In this document: in pieces, positions 4,649 through 37,516 of the stretch
Layout of the letters: each line of letters begins with the position of its first letter
Position numbering within the stretch: position 1 is the first letter of the stretch
Sequence record: OZ035738.1
From: Kagunavirus LM08P2
DNA: 42,999 bases
Direction: 5' to 3' (one strand)
The notes under the pieces: generated by a model
Told to the model about the DNA's origin: nothing
Database searches by the model: none
Seen by the model: only the letters and a program-made list of their open reading frames with translations
Made by a program: the position numbers and the translations under genes

Positions 4649-4677
4649 ATAGTACCCTATTATATTGGTGTGTGCAA
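4649..4677 (-). promoter_or_regulatory. Sigma70-like promoter, family 2 (TTGCAC-N17-TACTAT)
   Basis: Read on minus strand: TTGCACACACCAATATAATAGGGTACTAT; near-identical copies at 13790-13818(-), 36393-36421(+), 37829-37857(+). Confidence 0.5.
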
Positions 4678-4690
4678 ACTATTTATTTAC

Positions 4691-4743
4691 GTATTCCAGT
4701 TATTCCACTCAATTGTAAATGTTGGAATAAACTATTCGAATAG
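4691..4743. promoter_or_regulatory. Cluster of TGGAATA/TATTCCA repeats upstream of promoter at 4744
   Basis: TATTCCA at 4692-4698 and 4701-4707 with inverted partner TGGAATA at 4723-4729; similar TGGAATA pair at 5485-5512. Confidence 0.4.
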
Positions 4744-4772
4744 TTGACTTTTCACTAAAAATGTGCTAAGCT
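4744..4772 (+). promoter_or_regulatory. Promoter TTGACT-N17-TAAGCT (TG-extended), copy 1
   Basis: TTGACTTTTCACTAAAAATGTGCTAAGCT; nearly identical sequence at 36084-36112. Confidence 0.5.
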
Positions 4773-4779
4773 CCACCTG

Positions 4780-4978
4780 AGCTTGTGAAGTATGAACAAG
4801 CGACCGCGGCGCGGGCAGGTAACGGAGCGGGACGTAAGTCCTGAGTGTAGTTACGCTGACGCGTTCGGAAGGGCCATACTCTATTGCTTGTGTAAAAAGT
4901 AACTGGTTTACTGAGATTACGCCGTTTCTATGTTTAAATGATAAGGACTAGCGCCCCGCTTTATGGCGGGGCTTTACT
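4780..4978 (+). ncRNA. Candidate structured noncoding RNA / leader element, copy 1
   Basis: About 110 nt downstream of the promoter is conserved with the copy at 36119-36230; contains hairpins with compensatory differences between copies; no ORF conserved between copies; ends at a GC-rich hairpin plus T-run at 4951-4978. Confidence 0.45.
4951..4978 (+). terminator. Intrinsic terminator
   Basis: GCGCCCCGC-TTTATG-GCGGGGC followed by TTTACTT, immediately upstream of the spanin RBS. Confidence 0.55.
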
Positions 4979-32292: not shown

Positions 32293-32347
32293 ATTTCCGA
32301 CCCTCAGTTTGGTGCCCTCACGTATGAGGGCACCATAAGTTAAGTAG

Positions 32348-32867: not shown

Positions 32868-32897
32868 ACTATAATAGCGAACTATTCATGTTGTCAA
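32868..32897 (-). promoter_or_regulatory. Sigma70-like promoter, family 1
   Basis: On minus strand TTGACAACATGAATAGTTCGCTATTATAGT (18-bp spacer). Confidence 0.5.
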
Positions 32898-32961
32898 TGG
32901 GCTTTCCTAAAATAATTAATATGGTACTATTCACATATAAACTGACTAAGGAGTAATTGAC

Positions 32962-33177
32962 ATGCAACCATCTGAACTAGGCATCCGTGTAGAACAACGC
33001 CGTAAAGAACTCGGCATCTCCCAGCGCCGTCTGGCTGTCCTGGCCGGTGTTTCCCAGGGCGCAATTAACCAGCTTGCGCTCGGGGTAACTCAGGACGTCC
33101 GCCCGGCAACGCTGTTTAAACTGGCGGAAGTGCTGGAAGTAGACGCCAAGTGGCTGGCGTTCGGTGAAGGGGCTTAA
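32962..33177 (+). CDS. XRE-family HTH transcriptional regulator (Cro/CI-like)
   Basis: 71 aa; ELGISQRRLAVLAGVSQGAINQL is a canonical XRE helix-turn-helix; strong SD AAGGAG; opposite strand to surrounding operon. Confidence 0.7.
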   Translation: MQPSELGIRVEQRRKELGISQRRLAVLAGVSQGAINQLALGVTQDVRPATLFKLAEVLEVDAKWLAFGEGA

Positions 33178-33194: not shown

Positions 33195-35462
33195 CTATTC
33201 CAAATCTTCCTCAGTAACCACCAGCATTTCATTCGGCTCGTATATCGTCTTCGGAATCTTGTTATCCGTTATCCTGGTGTTAAGTCTGTAACGGCCAGGG
33301 ATTATCTGATTGTTTTCGTCGGTACCAGGCACAAGATACCCGGCCTCAACCATTTTCTTAATCTTCCCACGCTCTATGGCTTCTTTGGAGTTGAACGCCT
33401 TTGCGTTGGGGTCGGACTGAGCGAGCTTATTCGCTGCGGCCACCGTGATACCTTCATTGCCGTTGTAGGTTCCTTCTGCCAGTTCAAACGCTGCCAGTAT
33501 CGTGGCTTCCGAACTGTTGACGGCGTTCTCTACGGTTTTACGTACGTTTTCTTTACCTTCCTTTGTCAGCCCTTCTTCCCGCTCTTTCTCCTCGTCAGTT
33601 TTGAACGGCTCGAAGCCCCACGGCATCAGTACAAGCGCCTTGTGCGGTTCAGGCAGGTCGAGGTTTACGATTGTGCCGTATTCCTCTGTGCTACCCAGGA
33701 ACTCAACCGCGCGATACTCTTTCGGCGGCGGGGCTTCACGGAACTGTACTGACTCCAACACCATACCAACCGTCTTCTGTTGAGGCCCGTGCTTAAATTT
33801 AGAGTGGTATACGTTTATCTGGCGGTCGGTAGCGCGTTCGATTGTCAGCTCCACGTCGACGCCCGCATACAGCGCCCCACTGCCACGGGCCTTCTTTCCA
33901 CCCTTCGGCGTATGGTGGACAACGCCTACCGCAGCTTTAGTCGCATCACGTACTTCTTTCAGGATGGCAATGACTTTACCCATGCCGATTGCCGTCGATG
34001 AACTGTTCTCGTCGAACTTATCAATCGTCAGGGCCAGCGTCTGGTTAAGGGTGTCGAATGCGACCATGCCAATTGGCTCGTCACCCGCAGTTTCACGCAT
34101 TAACTTAATCAGGTTTTTCAGTTTTCCGACTTCGCCCATGTCGATAACATGTACATAATCTTTACCTTCCTCGCCATATTTAGCCGCGAGTGCATCTATA
34201 CGTGTGCGTGTAGCTGCGCCTCCCTCACCGTCGATATAGAAATGGTGGCAACGCTGGGTATCCGCCCCGGCAAACCGGTATCCGGCGGCGCTCAGGTACA
34301 TCATCCCCAGCGTATAGAACGATTTGTACGTGCCGGATTCCCCAACAATATCCCAGATACAATCTGACGGCATGTACCCCTCAACGACGAAATCAGCCTT
34401 TACCGGTTCCAGTAACTCGTCCTCCTCTGAGCCATCATCGTCTTCCAGGTCGTCGAGGCTGCATGAGACAGATTCACGCGCGCCCCAGCCGATAGCCTCG
34501 GCCACTTCACTGAACGGCAACCCGGTCGCATCACACGCGTATTTCCACACCTCTTTCGGTGACATGCCTTCGGTTGCCGTAATGTCGGTGTCGTGAATCA
34601 TGGTTACGTTCGGCGCTTCGTATCCCTCGCGCGGGAAACATAACAGGAAGTCGTCCGGGCGTGGTGTCGGGTCGCTGTAGTTTTCTGCGTGTTCTGGCGT
34701 AGCTGGCATCTTAAGGCCACGCGGCGTCATGATGCCGCCGTACTCGAATGCCAGTGCTTCAAACGCATCCGTAAACGCGGTGCGTAGTTCTTCCGGTATC
34801 TGGTAATCCGATGCACTGCTAACGTCAACGGCTGGTACACCTTCCAGTAACTCTTCCGGGTCAATCAGGTCGTTACGGCGCGACCAGATAACGGTAGAGC
34901 CAACCGGCGGCAGGTACATCGGTTGCGACAGAGTGAACCCGCTGCGGTCAGCGCCCATACCTTTGAAGAAGTGCTCCAGCAATCCGAGACGAACGCGGAT
35001 GATGTCACCACCTTCAACCGGACGCCCCAGCGGCATGACGACGCGAAAGCGCGGGGACTCATCGGCATGTGATGCTGTGGTGTAGAGGCACATCGCCTGG
35101 CGGCTGCGTTTAACCAGTTGCACCGCTTCCTGATACTCTTCCGTCGTTGCGCTGTCGAAGTCCAGATACGCCAGTGACGATTTGCTTACAGACGCGTCAC
35201 AGCGATAGAAGAAGCCTTTACGCGCTTGCTTAAAGTCACCGGTTTCCGGGTCTTTTACGGTGCTGTGCGTCGAGTCGCACGCGGCAGTGATATAGCCCGG
35301 TGCGGTCTTCGGATTAATTCCGTCTCGAACGGCATCGAGCGGCTGGAGTAGCTCTTTCAGGTCGCCCAGTGTCGCCGTGTGTGTTGTTCTGACGTTTATA
35401 TCCTTTTTCTCCGCCCGCGCGTTGCGACGTGACCACGAGTAGGATAAAATTACATCGGACAT
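33195..35462 (-). CDS. Primase-polymerase (AEP-like) fused to RecA-fold helicase
   Basis: 755 aa; N-terminal LAYLDFD and SHAD motifs resemble AEP prim-pol catalytic motifs; central GESGTYKS (Walker A) and VHHTPK. Confidence 0.7.
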   Translation of the reverse strand: MSDVILSYSWSRRNARAEKKDINVRTTHTATLGDLKELLQPLDAVRDGINPKTAPGYITAACDSTHSTVKDPETGDFKQARKGFFYRCDASVSKSSLAYLDFDSATTEEYQEAVQLVKRSRQAMCLYTTASHADESPRFRVVMPLGRPVEGGDIIRVRLGLLEHFFKGMGADRSGFTLSQPMYLPPVGSTVIWSRRNDLIDPEELLEGVPAVDVSSASDYQIPEELRTAFTDAFEALAFEYGGIMTPRGLKMPATPEHAENYSDPTPRPDDFLLCFPREGYEAPNVTMIHDTDITATEGMSPKEVWKYACDATGLPFSEVAEAIGWGARESVSCSLDDLEDDDGSEEDELLEPVKADFVVEGYMPSDCIWDIVGESGTYKSFYTLGMMYLSAAGYRFAGADTQRCHHFYIDGEGGAATRTRIDALAAKYGEEGKDYVHVIDMGEVGKLKNLIKLMRETAGDEPIGMVAFDTLNQTLALTIDKFDENSSSTAIGMGKVIAILKEVRDATKAAVGVVHHTPKGGKKARGSGALYAGVDVELTIERATDRQINVYHSKFKHGPQQKTVGMVLESVQFREAPPPKEYRAVEFLGSTEEYGTIVNLDLPEPHKALVLMPWGFEPFKTDEEKEREEGLTKEGKENVRKTVENAVNSSEATILAAFELAEGTYNGNEGITVAAANKLAQSDPNAKAFNSKEAIERGKIKKMVEAGYLVPGTDENNQIIPGRYRLNTRITDNKIPKTIYEPNEMLVVTEEDLE

Positions 35463-35520
35463 GTTGTATTTCCTTCAGCAAGTAATTTGGCCTCGGCGTT
35501 CACCGCGTCGGGGCTTTCTT

Positions 35521-35811
35521 TTATCTATTAGCCAGACATTCCATCAAATGCGCGTACTTACGATAATAATCTACGACAATCTCATCACCGAAATACTGAT
35601 AAACGTACGCTAAGTGGTCAGAGACATCGATGGAAGCCGACATTGTGCTGAGTCTTCGGAGACTAATCAACTGTAATTCTTCTGTAACGCAAAACGGTGA
35701 ATAAGAGTCCAGCTTACAAGAAACGTTAAAGCACAACGCATATTCGCCTTGCACTAAATAAACCATATAAGCACTGTCATTTTCTTTATCGTGGAAAATT
35801 ACACCTTTCAT
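35521..35811 (-). CDS. Hypothetical protein (96 aa)
   Basis: ORF with ATGA coupling to upstream HTH gene. Confidence 0.4.
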   Translation of the reverse strand: MKGVIFHDKENDSAYMVYLVQGEYALCFNVSCKLDSYSPFCVTEELQLISLRRLSTMSASIDVSDHLAYVYQYFGDEIVVDYYRKYAHLMECLANR

Positions 35812-35976
35812 TTCACGTTCTCCTTAATCCACGCCTCAACTTTATTACGGTCAAATGTACCAGGTAAACGGCGACCCATTACTTTAACGCTGCAATCAGG
35901 AAACTTTCCACTCTTAATCCAGTTATTGATTGTCTGGCGGGTGACTCCGATTAATTCTGCAACTTCATTGATAGTC
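35808..35976 (-). CDS. Small HTH DNA-binding protein (AlpA/excisionase-like fold)
   Basis: ATG at 35976 with SD AGGAGAG; MTINEVAELIGVTRQTINNWIKSGKFP is a typical phage HTH; first gene of leftward early operon; track start 36068 is an upstream extension. Confidence 0.55.
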
Positions 35977-36005
35977 ATTTCGCGCTCTCCTGTGTAAGAT
36001 GTATC

Positions 36006-36034
36006 GAAGTATAAGGCGGTAACTTTGTAAAAGC
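36006..36034 (-). promoter_or_regulatory. Leftward early promoter TTGCTT-N17-TATACT
   Basis: Minus-strand reading TTGCTTTTACAAAGTTACCGCCTTATACT; about 30 nt upstream of HTH gene. Confidence 0.45.
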
Positions 36035-36056
36035 AACCAAAACTGAACACAAAGTT
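36017..36056. promoter_or_regulatory. Operator-like perfect inverted repeat GTAACTTTGT-N20-ACAAAGTTAC
   Basis: 10-bp perfect inverted repeat arms at 36017-36026 and 36047-36056 bracketing the -35 of the leftward promoter, between divergent promoters. Confidence 0.5.
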
Positions 36057-36083
36057 ACTAAGATACAAAAGATGCTACTGGTA

Positions 36084-36112
36084 TTGACTTTTACTTAAAA
36101 ATATGCTAAGCT
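36084..36112 (+). promoter_or_regulatory. Promoter TTGACT-N17-TAAGCT (TG-extended), copy 2
   Basis: TTGACTTTTACTTAAAAATATGCTAAGCT, nearly identical to 4744-4772. Confidence 0.5.
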
Positions 36113-36118
36113 TCACTG

Positions 36119-36353
36119 AGCTTGTGAGATATCGCAAGCGACCGCGGAGCGGCAGGGAACGCAACGCGTGCCATTAGGCACTTGAGTGTAGTTCCGCTGG
36201 CGCTTTCGGAAGGGCCAAAGTCTATTGTTAATCCCGCCTAAATACCCAAGTCACTGATAATTAAAAGTTTCTATAGTTGCCGTAAGCAAGGTGGAGAGTA
36301 CTTCACTCCGCTGGGGTGGGCTAACGCCCACCCACTGCGTTGCGTACTCTTTT
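36119..36353 (+). ncRNA. Candidate structured noncoding RNA / leader element, copy 2
   Basis: Conserved with 4780-4886 over about 110 nt; no ORF; GC-rich hairpin GGGTGGGC-TAAC-GCCCACCC at 36313-36333 enclosed by GAGAGTAC/GTACTCT and followed by TTTT. Confidence 0.45.
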
Positions 36354-36392
36354 AAGAAACGAAAGAATCACAACGGCAACGTAACTTTTCTC

Positions 36393-36421
36393 TTGCACAC
36401 ACCAACATAATAGGATACTAT
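36393..36421 (+). promoter_or_regulatory. Sigma70-like promoter, family 2
   Basis: TTGCACACACCAACATAATAGGATACTAT upstream of 36456 gene. Confidence 0.5.
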
Positions 36422-36455
36422 TCACTTATAGAAACGAGACAGAGGAGTGAGGGTT

Positions 36456-36644
36456 ATGTTTAAACGTGGTCAGTTGGTTAAAGCTGTAAATAGCAATTAT
36501 TTCATTGTTGAAAGCGAGTCTGCAGTTTTTCCGGGGGCTTATAGGGTAAGTTTTCTCGGGGAAAGATTAGGAGCAATAACCTGGTTCCGTGGAGATGAGC
36601 TAACACTCATCGGCAACAATTTTAAATTCAAAGGGGCGAAGTGA
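36456..36644 (+). CDS. Hypothetical early protein
   Basis: ATG with SD GAGGAG (track start 36447 is GTG). Confidence 0.4.
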   Translation: MFKRGQLVKAVNSNYFIVESESAVFPGAYRVSFLGERLGAITWFRGDELTLIGNNFKFKGAK

Positions 36645-36898
36645 TGGAAGAATTAATTTGTATTGAATCCAGCCAGGATGTGCAGGATTGGTTTGTTAAA
36701 GGTAACAGATATTCGTCCGGAGTATATTCCGACGGCCGTCGATATGTTTTAGACGAAGACGGTGATGAATGGGATTTAAATGACGATGTAAGAGAAACTT
36801 TAACCGTTAGCAGGGTCAATGCTGTTTCTGCCTCATTCACAACGGCATCGAATCATGATGCTCGTGCCGACGACTCTGAGGGAGGTTGCCGTGAATAA
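36644..36898 (+). CDS. Acidic hypothetical protein
   Basis: 84 aa, Asp/Glu-rich; TGATG overlap coupling. Confidence 0.4.
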   Translation: MEELICIESSQDVQDWFVKGNRYSSGVYSDGRRYVLDEDGDEWDLNDDVRETLTVSRVNAVSASFTTASNHDARADDSEGGCRE

Positions 36899-36946
36899 TT
36901 ACCCGTTTATTTTAATAGTCAGCGCCGTTTATGTGGTGCATGCGTT

Positions 36947-37180
36947 ATGGGGGCTGGTATGAGAAAACACATAATAAAGGTAGACCATCTGGACGGAGTT
37001 AAATTGCCGACGAATAAAGTAGAAACGTGGTGTGGGGCCACTCCATCGTACGGTGAATGGCTGTTCCAGGATGCTCAACACGCCTTAATTGCTGTAGAAA
37101 ACGGATTCAGGCAAGAGCCTTGCGCACAGTGTTTATCCGCTATCGCCCAGATCGCAACTCAGGCGTTAAGTGAGGACTAA
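36947..37180 (+). CDS. Hypothetical protein
   Basis: 77-aa ORF; alternative start ATG 36959. Confidence 0.35.
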   Translation: MGAGMRKHIIKVDHLDGVKLPTNKVETWCGATPSYGEWLFQDAQHALIAVENGFRQEPCAQCLSAIAQIATQALSED

Positions 37181-37183
37181 GTT

Positions 37184-37327
37184 ATGAGAGAAGCATTCGA
37201 ACGGTGGGCCGTCGTCGAGGGTCTGCCGGTTAACAAGGGTTCGAAGAAAGAGTACCTGAACGTTAAGACGCGTCTCGCGTGGCGGGCGTGGAAAGCTGGT
37301 GTGTTGTTTATCGCGAATCGGAGGTGA
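37184..37327 (+). CDS. Small hypothetical protein (47 aa)
   Basis: Hand-translated MREAFERWAVVEGLPVNKGSKKEYLNVKTRLAWRAWKAGVLFIANRR; SD GAGGAC. Confidence 0.35.
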   Translation: MREAFERWAVVEGLPVNKGSKKEYLNVKTRLAWRAWKAGVLFIANRR

Positions 37328-37330
37328 TTT

Positions 37331-37516
37331 ATGGGTGAGTGGATTAAGTGTAGTGAGCGGATGCCTGAGCCTTATGAATACGTTCTTGTAACTGATTGTT
37401 TTGTTGGCTGTGAGGTTATGCGTGTTAATTCAGATGGCTACTGGGGGCCTGCAAAGAGTTTATATCACGGTGATATAACGCACTGGATGCCGTTACCTGA
37501 GCCGCCGGAGGTGTGA
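37331..37516 (+). CDS. DUF551-like protein
   Basis: 61 aa; EWIKCSERMPE...VLV...ITHWMPLPEPP matches the DUF551 pattern common in enterobacterial phages. Confidence 0.6.
   Translation: MGEWIKCSERMPEPYEYVLVTDCFVGCEVMRVNSDGYWGPAKSLYHGDITHWMPLPEPPEV

Follow-up and report, generated by a model that had tools for sequence, protein, structure and literature searches.

Divergent promoters beside a small gene for a helix-turn-helix (HTH) protein are commonplace in phages, and the locus described here adds one more case. The question it raises is whether a perfect 10-bp inverted repeat in its control region is an operator. A sequence-only reading of the DNA had proposed that the protein encoded by the first leftward gene binds this repeat and thereby regulates its own expression.

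The whole stretch of DNA that was analysed, 42,999 nucleotides of Kagunavirus LM08P2 (OZ035738.1), is called the window in the following. A 1.3-kb query taken around the repeat region finds matches in 121 phage records, which with few exceptions are Kagunavirus or Guernseyvirinae siphoviruses of E. coli, and from these matches the window is judged to be the near-complete genome of a virulent E. coli phage of the genus Kagunavirus. Over the same 1.3 kb, the Kagunavirus LM08P1 is 99.9% identical to the window and Escherichia phage AV104 is 99.2% identical, with 91% of the query aligned. In the annotation of AV104, the structural genes are on the plus strand, a minus-strand replication block ends in a primase-helicase gene, a 96-aa gene and the small HTH gene, and many small plus-strand genes together with the lysis genes extend from about 36450. 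The repeat region is the point at which the minus-strand and the plus-strand gene blocks diverge. The main features are the following.

35808-35978, minus strand: gene of the 56-aa HTH_17 protein, first leftward gene (ORF with ATG start, PF12728)
35984-35989, minus strand: GGAGAG, ribosome-binding site of the HTH gene, read from the sequence
36008-36013, minus strand: TATACT, -10 hexamer of the leftward promoter P_left (0.013 differing in 25 distinct relatives; also found in Jersey-like phages)
36019-36028: left arm of the repeat, GTAACTTTGT (repeat pair I5), inside the P_left spacer
36031-36036, minus strand: TTGCTT, -35 hexamer of P_left, invariant in 25 distinct Kagunavirus sequences
36049-36058: right arm of the repeat, ACAAAGTTAC (repeat pair I5), at the distal edge of the block upstream of the rightward promoter P_right
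36049-36083: conserved 35-bp block, -36 to -70 from the presumed start of P_right (variability 0.012-0.04)
36084-36112, plus strand: P_right, TTGACT-17-TGcTAAGCT, conserved in relatives, with a second copy at 4744-4772
36119-36353, plus strand: predicted structured non-coding RNA, with a 5' domain to about 36245 and then a 3' hairpin and U-run
4744-4890, plus strand: second copy of P_right and of the 5' RNA domain (repeat family D5; RNA part 4779-4890)

The Divergent Promoters

The region had been described as a divergent control region, and this description is borne out by promoter hexamers that are invariant or nearly invariant across relatives and by spacers that drift. The rightward promoter was read exactly at the coordinates claimed for it (36084-36112), with the -35 TTGACT at 36084-36089, the -10 TAAGCT at 36107-36112 and a TG at -15/-14 that makes an extended -10. 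The leftward promoter can also be recognised, as TTGCTT-17-TATACT, but it had been placed at 36006-36034 and the supported position is 2 bp to the right (36008-36036). The hexamers of P_left are 17 bp apart and match the consensus at 8 of 12 positions; a strict consensus scanner calls neither P_left nor P_right, one hexamer of each being only 3/6, which in P_left is the -35. Both promoters have the hexamers, the 17-bp spacing and the conservation despite spacer drift that are looked for in sigma-70 promoters, and the variability of the P_left spacer amounts to 0.26-0.34 in 25 distinct sequences. Invariant hexamers with variable spacers are the expected signature of real promoters. The region thereby has the appearance of a genuine back-to-back promoter pair of the host-RNA-polymerase type, and early expression of P_left and P_right would fit this promoter class, the timing being read off the type of promoter. 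P_left would start a leftward operon comprising the HTH_17 gene, the 96-aa gene and then the primase-helicase gene. Relatives do not preserve the -35 of a possible second leftward promoter (TTTTAA-17-TAGCAT, 36100 to 36072). In RNA-seq of Kagunavirus vB_Eco_K1B4, an HTH-domain gene is among four early genes (PMC12645636); it is not equated here with the HTH_17 gene of the window because ST20, a close relative of K1B4, has no HTH_17.

P_right would make a structured non-coding RNA of roughly 235 nt. The RNA (36119-36353) folds with a z-score of -3.95, and the consensus of eight distinct homologues contains 26 pairs, six of which have compensatory changes. No ORF lies between P_right and 36447. 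The earlier view of P_right as the promoter of a duplicated element holds, the element being a structured RNA with covariation that is copied near 4744; the duplicated part is the promoter and the first ~125 nt of the RNA, recurring at 4744-4890. Because the downstream RNA folds, covaries and is duplicated together with the promoter, P_right is supported as the real promoter of a real RNA gene. The 3' domain of the RNA (36246-36353, a long hairpin and then UUUU) is 95% identical in Jersey-like phages, and their 5' domain is different. Rfam gave no family for the whole window at gathering thresholds, and at E <= 10 over 35950-36470 it gave only sub-threshold chance matches.

Different symmetric sequences, unrelated to the repeat at 36019-36058, lie upstream of the other P_right copy (4744). 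These are a perfect 12-bp palindrome, CTATTCGAATAG, at 4732-4743, which abuts the -35 of that copy, and TTATTCCA-N15-TGGAATAA at 4700-4730. In addition, the end of one contig (L016, IMGVR_UViG_3300045988_013548) carries the Nextera adapter CTGTCTCTTATACACATCTCCGAGCCCACGAGAC right after P_right, an assembly artefact.

The Inverted Repeat

The inverted repeat is formed by GTAACTTTGT and ACAAAGTTAC, arms that match perfectly over 10 bp; 20 bp lie between them, and their centres are 30 bp apart. The perfect arms and the 20-bp gap had been recognised correctly, but the repeat had been assigned to 36017-36056 and the true site is 2 bp rightward (36019-36058). As had also been noticed, the arms bracket the leftward -35: the left arm is within the spacer (about -18 to -27 relative to P_left), where it occupies the core region of the HTH gene's own predicted promoter, and the right arm is upstream of the -35 (about -48 to -57).

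When perfect arms of at least 10 bp and spacers of at most 40 bp are counted, the whole window has three inverted repeats against 1.35 +/- 1.2 expected from 200 dinucleotide shuffles, and 17% of the shuffles reach three. After shuffling, such a repeat is contained in 0.6% of 140-bp control regions and in about 9% of 3.5-kb sequences of this non-coding composition. The repeat is locally improbable, yet unexceptional in a scan of the whole genome (43 kb). Perfect repeats with arms of 10 bp or more number only three genome-wide, and another of them is a perfect 11-bp hairpin, TGGTGCCCTCA-N4-TGAGGGCACCA, at 32310-32335. It lies between two leftward genes, in the short interval that separates them, and probably functions as a terminator or in RNA stability.

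No half-site with at most one mismatch exists in the genome beyond the two arms, and with at most two mismatches there are 38 matches against 39 expected. A regulon of half-sites was rejected because of this lack of enrichment. The 8-mer GTAACTTT occurs four times against 1.6 expected, with three of the occurrences inside 36019-36388, a marginal excess.

Comparison of the Two Arms among Relatives

Both arms were compared across about 50 relatives, namely 37 IMG/VR loci encoding HTH relatives and 11 GenBank loci, and these fall into three groups according to the identity of the HTH protein (95-100%, 89% and 79%). Group 1, with 95-100% identity, includes the window, AV104, LM08P1, 536P11, phiEc3, phiEc4, K-01, K-02, EcoPhCCP1, Esher4, NRG857CP3 and the loci L003-L008; LM08P1, K-02 and a second phiEc3 record were assigned to it by 94-100% identity over the full query, with their sequence unread. 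The left arm is present only in this group, that is, in 11 of 40 GenBank records (eight of them read) and in six IMG/VR Kagunavirus contigs. It is unchanged in all 14 group-1 sequences read and the repeat is perfect in eight, in genomes that are closely related to one another. Moreover, the left arm is completely linked to the group-1 HTH allele (I3, L9, I21, K22, S30, V31).

In group 2 (HTH 89% identical), to which phage fFiEco02 belongs, the recognition helix TRQTINNW and the wing KVMGRRLPG are the same as in group 1. The P_left hexamers and their 17-bp spacing are kept, the spacer reads ...GGATAGCGGGAATGTAA and the right arm is intact; the left arm is replaced by GGGAATGT, the group-2 version of the site, or by GGTAATGT, the version of phage Ivi, versus GTAACTTTGT in the window. 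Group 2 and Ivi carry a partial match to the left arm (GTAA..TGT) and differ from GTAACTTTGT in CTT. Groups 1 and 2 are 97.7% similar from 36026 rightwards and their similarity is undetectable leftwards; since it starts at 36026, the junction lies inside the left arm. Group 3 consists of Jersey-like phages, whose HTH protein is 79% identical. Here P_left has the -35 TTGATT, again 17 bp from its -10, the leftward and rightward -35 hexamers lie only 15 bp apart, and the repeat is missing altogether. In the loci L010 and L013, whose HTH protein is identical to that of group 2, the P_right/RNA module is swapped for another promoter and both arms are absent.

A tblastn search across the genome of Kagunavirus ST20 gave no orthologue of HTH_17; the phage nevertheless keeps ACAAAGTTAC and the following block. 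At this locus (L291, 6954-7539), two genes for proteins of 47 aa (cysteine-rich) and 149 aa stand in place of the HTH_17 and 96-aa genes, and P_right, the upstream block and the RNA are retained, so that a module has been exchanged at exactly this junction.

Within group 1, the right arm is mutated in three lineages, all of them without compensation in the left arm, which is unaltered: it has changed to GCAAAGTTAC in phiEc3, phiEc4, K-01, L003 and L004, lost one nucleotide in L005, and changed to ACAAAGTAAC in NRG857CP3. Scans of IMG/VR and of a metagenome collection with AGTATA-N14-TAAAAGCAAC gave no further Kagunavirus variant among the matches listed. Variability per column, defined as the fraction differing from the majority base in 25 distinct sequences, is as follows.

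Promoter hexamers: 0-0.013
Right arm: 0.012 (biased slightly downward, the set having been chosen via the right-arm block)
36059-36083: 0.04
P_right spacer: 0.09
RNA: 0.157
Left arm: 0.264
Leader: 0.268

The 35-bp block is as invariant as the promoter hexamers and more so than the P_right spacer or the RNA. The distance from the right arm to the -35 of P_right is a constant 25 bp in all phages compared, ST20 included; from the right arm to the leftward -35-like hexamer, by contrast, there are 2 bp in ST20 and 12 bp in the window. The two arms thus appear to differ in history and constraint, the right one being positioned by P_right and the left one lying in the drifting spacer of P_left, and the right arm would form the distal end of a conserved 35-bp element of P_right. 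Because of its fixed position and strong conservation, the block at 36049-36083 probably serves P_right, as UP-like contacts or as a factor-binding site, and we infer that it is independent of the HTH_17 protein.

Just inside the right arm, positions 36044-36048 are a 5-nt hypervariable patch among otherwise near-identical relatives (TGAAC, ACCAC, AACAC, CGAAC, GCCAC, ACCGC and ACTAC). Furthermore, the Jersey-like loci L023-L033 contain TATCTTAGTTACTTTG, which is identical at 15 of 16 positions to 36050-36065 of the window in the opposite orientation (blastn-short, E = 0.013) and sits about 7 nt downstream of their P_right -10. This match could be a small inversion, a 5' stem element of the RNA or a coincidence.

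The HTH_17 Protein

The first leftward gene had been read as encoding a small HTH protein. This identification stands, with a match to Pfam PF12728 (HTH_17) at 40.6 bits (cut-off 27, E = 3e-10), but the end of the gene had been given as 35976 and the ORF is 35808-35978. The 56-aa protein also matches PHROG 66, "excisionase and transcriptional regulator". The AlphaFold2 model (pLDDT 85.6) has the topology H-H-wing-H, with helices at residues 3-10, 14-23 and 44-54 and strands at 30-33 and 36-42, and lacks a coiled-coil dimerisation helix or a dimerisation domain; it is based on a shallow alignment because the homologue search with the protein found only nine close relatives. The best structural matches by Foldseek are to DNA-bound BldC (6ama/6amk; probability 0.99-1.0, TM about 0.63), and further ones are the Pukovnik Xis (4j2n), the RacA DNA-binding domain and DNA-binding domains of MerR proteins. 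As modelled, the product is a minimal MerR-like winged helix of the BldC/Xis type.

The protein shares fold and size, the HTH_17 family and the lack of a dimerisation domain with BldC, Pukovnik Xis and D29 Gp36. BldC binds direct repeats as head-to-tail multimers (PMC5859096). The D29 protein Gp36, a related minimal MerR-like protein that is a proven repressor of genes in a lytic phage, also binds as a head-to-tail multimer, and its site is the direct repeat AGGCGGCG-N13-AGGCGGCG (PMC12266134). Unlike these direct-repeat targets, the candidate site here is inverted with centres 30 bp apart; within 35979-36120 there are no direct repeats of at least 9 nt, and the sole symmetric element is the inverted one.

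Is the Repeat an Operator of the HTH_17 Protein?

Autoregulation through the repeat, as originally proposed, finds no support: the left arm is limited to one lineage, the right arm is kept in ST20, the mutations are uncompensated and the relatives of the protein bind direct repeats. Site and regulator are not conserved together either, the left arm being gone in group 2 and both arms in L010 and L013 with the recognition helix and wing identical. On balance, a slight preference goes to the reading that the repeat is not a dedicated conserved operator of the HTH_17 protein and that the region consists of ordinary back-to-back promoters. The left arm would then be a sub-lineage-specific version of an otherwise unconstrained P_left spacer, and it is either neutral or recently gained. 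Its perfect match most likely comes from local sequence turnover in the group-1 lineage, presumably of neutral origin. A template switch, or quasipalindrome correction, against the right arm could perfect the pre-existing partial match, and exchange of the leader module by recombination would be an equally possible source of the left arm. A perfect match is explicable without selection because group 2 and Ivi already resemble GTAACTTTGT apart from CTT. As with template-switch repeats, an imperfect version is found in relatives and the perfect one is limited to one lineage; unlike a clear template-switch case, the whole leader differs between the groups, and template switching is put forward as an evolutionary scenario only.

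An operator confined to one lineage is conceivable but unlikely. In this case, the HTH_17 protein (the most plausible ligand) would bind the right arm and, in group 1, also the inverted site in the P_left spacer, and cooperative occupation of the two sites, whose centres lie about three helical turns (30 bp) apart on either side of the -35, would repress P_left and may modulate P_right. The left arm is placed where a bound protein would block RNA polymerase, but ST20 keeps the right arm in a genome that has no HTH_17 gene. Group 1 shows no variation in the left arm, and because the linkage of this arm to the group-1 HTH allele is complete, a co-evolved lineage-specific site is possible; yet the arm is missing where recognition helix and wing are identical, L010 and L013 have neither arm, and the right-arm mutations have gone uncompensated. 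Perfect 10-bp arms are rare in the shuffled 140-bp region (0.6%, as described above), and Gp36 of D29 is a precedent for such a repressor in a lytic phage (PMC12266134), whereas BldC, Xis and Gp36 all bind direct repeats head to tail (PMC5859096; PMC12266134) and the 56-aa protein has no dimerisation domain.

A bolder proposal, which we regard as distinctly improbable, is that in one sub-lineage a monomeric BldC/Xis-like protein has gained a second, inverted site, so that two protomers clamp the -35 from the same face of the DNA. If true, the clamp would autorepress the early/replication operon and couple it to the promoter of the structured RNA, and it would be a recently evolved operator standing beside sister phages that are still without it.

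Two classical systems are comparable with the locus in part. The lambda OR region (PRM/PR) likewise has back-to-back sigma-70 promoters, a small HTH gene as the first gene and a symmetric sequence that overlaps a promoter. An operator of the lambda type consists of several 17-bp dyads in an array, the half-sites of each dyad being contiguous, and is conserved together with its repressor. The present locus differs from lambda OR in having a single repeat, whose arms are separated by 20 bp and which is neither part of an array nor conserved along with the protein, and in belonging to a virulent phage. With MerR operators it shares the location of one arm in the spacer between -35 and -10 and a MerR-like DNA-binding domain. 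The dyads of MerR proteins lie wholly within an over-long spacer of 19-20 bp and need a coiled-coil dimer, whereas the spacer here is of optimal length (17 bp), the second arm lies beyond the -35 on its upstream side, and no coiled coil is present in the protein.

Other Regulators and the AATAG-N4-CTATT Palindrome

It is very unlikely that the repeat is bound by another dimeric regulator, such as the DicA-like HTH_3 protein encoded at 32962-33177 or a host factor. Proteins of the HTH_3 type typically bind operators as dimers, but a 20-bp gap between half-sites is atypical of dimers of the Cro/CI type; and the conservation of the right-arm block implies constraint by some factor or by contact with RNA polymerase, but the left arm shows no such conservation. 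As an operator for a dimeric HTH protein, the palindrome AATAG-N4-CTATT is a much better candidate, and none of its copies lies within 35979-36120. The genome has seven exact copies and further ones with one mismatch, against about one expected at one mismatch or fewer. The exact copies (14 bp each) are at the following positions.

4648
13789
26587
30251
32873
36409
37845

The palindrome overlaps the -10 of repeated promoters, of which four full copies (TTGCAC-17-TACTAT) are at 4649, 13790, 36393 and 37829. Directly upstream of the HTH_3 gene there are the exact copy at 32873 and a copy with one mismatch at 32918. The palindrome looks like an operator of a dimeric regulator. For Kagunavirus fBC-Eco01 the same consensus has appeared in print under the name "phage promoters" (PMC9825357), although a phage RNA polymerase is missing from the annotations of the relatives AV104 and ST20. 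Because AATAG-N4-CTATT is absent from 35979-36120, P_left and P_right are set apart, by their sequence, as a separate promoter class near the sigma-70 consensus.

A Structural or Origin Role?

A structural role of the repeat, be it in a cruciform or origin beside the primase-helicase gene or in a leader RNA hairpin, is highly improbable: it would suit the most AT-rich 100 bp locally (32% GC), a local minimum of cumulative GC skew (profiled over 34500-37500) and a single strand that folds as a 10-bp stem (-6.4 kcal/mol, z-score -3.1), but the left arm is missing in most relatives, cruciform extrusion is disfavoured by a 20-nt loop, and the skew minimum is uninformative because it coincides with the switch of coding strand. 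An iteron-type replication origin was rejected, since neither iterons nor direct-repeat arrays were found in 35400-36500 and the P4-type TGTTCACC box is not enriched. A leader RNA hairpin was rejected as well: the repeat is upstream of both predicted start sites, near 36001 for the leftward and 36119 for the rightward promoter, and is therefore predicted not to be transcribed, and the second leftward promoter has the non-conserved -35 mentioned above.

Significance of the Locus

If the repeat were a working operator after all, it would be a small natural example of the gain of a regulatory site, with sister phages that differ only in a promoter spacer, and a protein of the BldC/Xis type would be seen to bind in an unusual way, to inverted sites that lie far apart. 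As matters stand, the repeat should not be treated as the site of the regulator. The more promising regulatory features of this genome are the structured RNA and the AATAG-N4-CTATT palindromes. The practical value of the analysis is that it locates, for Kagunavirus, the promoters, probably of the host type, from which the leftward replication operon and the duplicated RNA would be transcribed; phages of this genus are under development for therapy.
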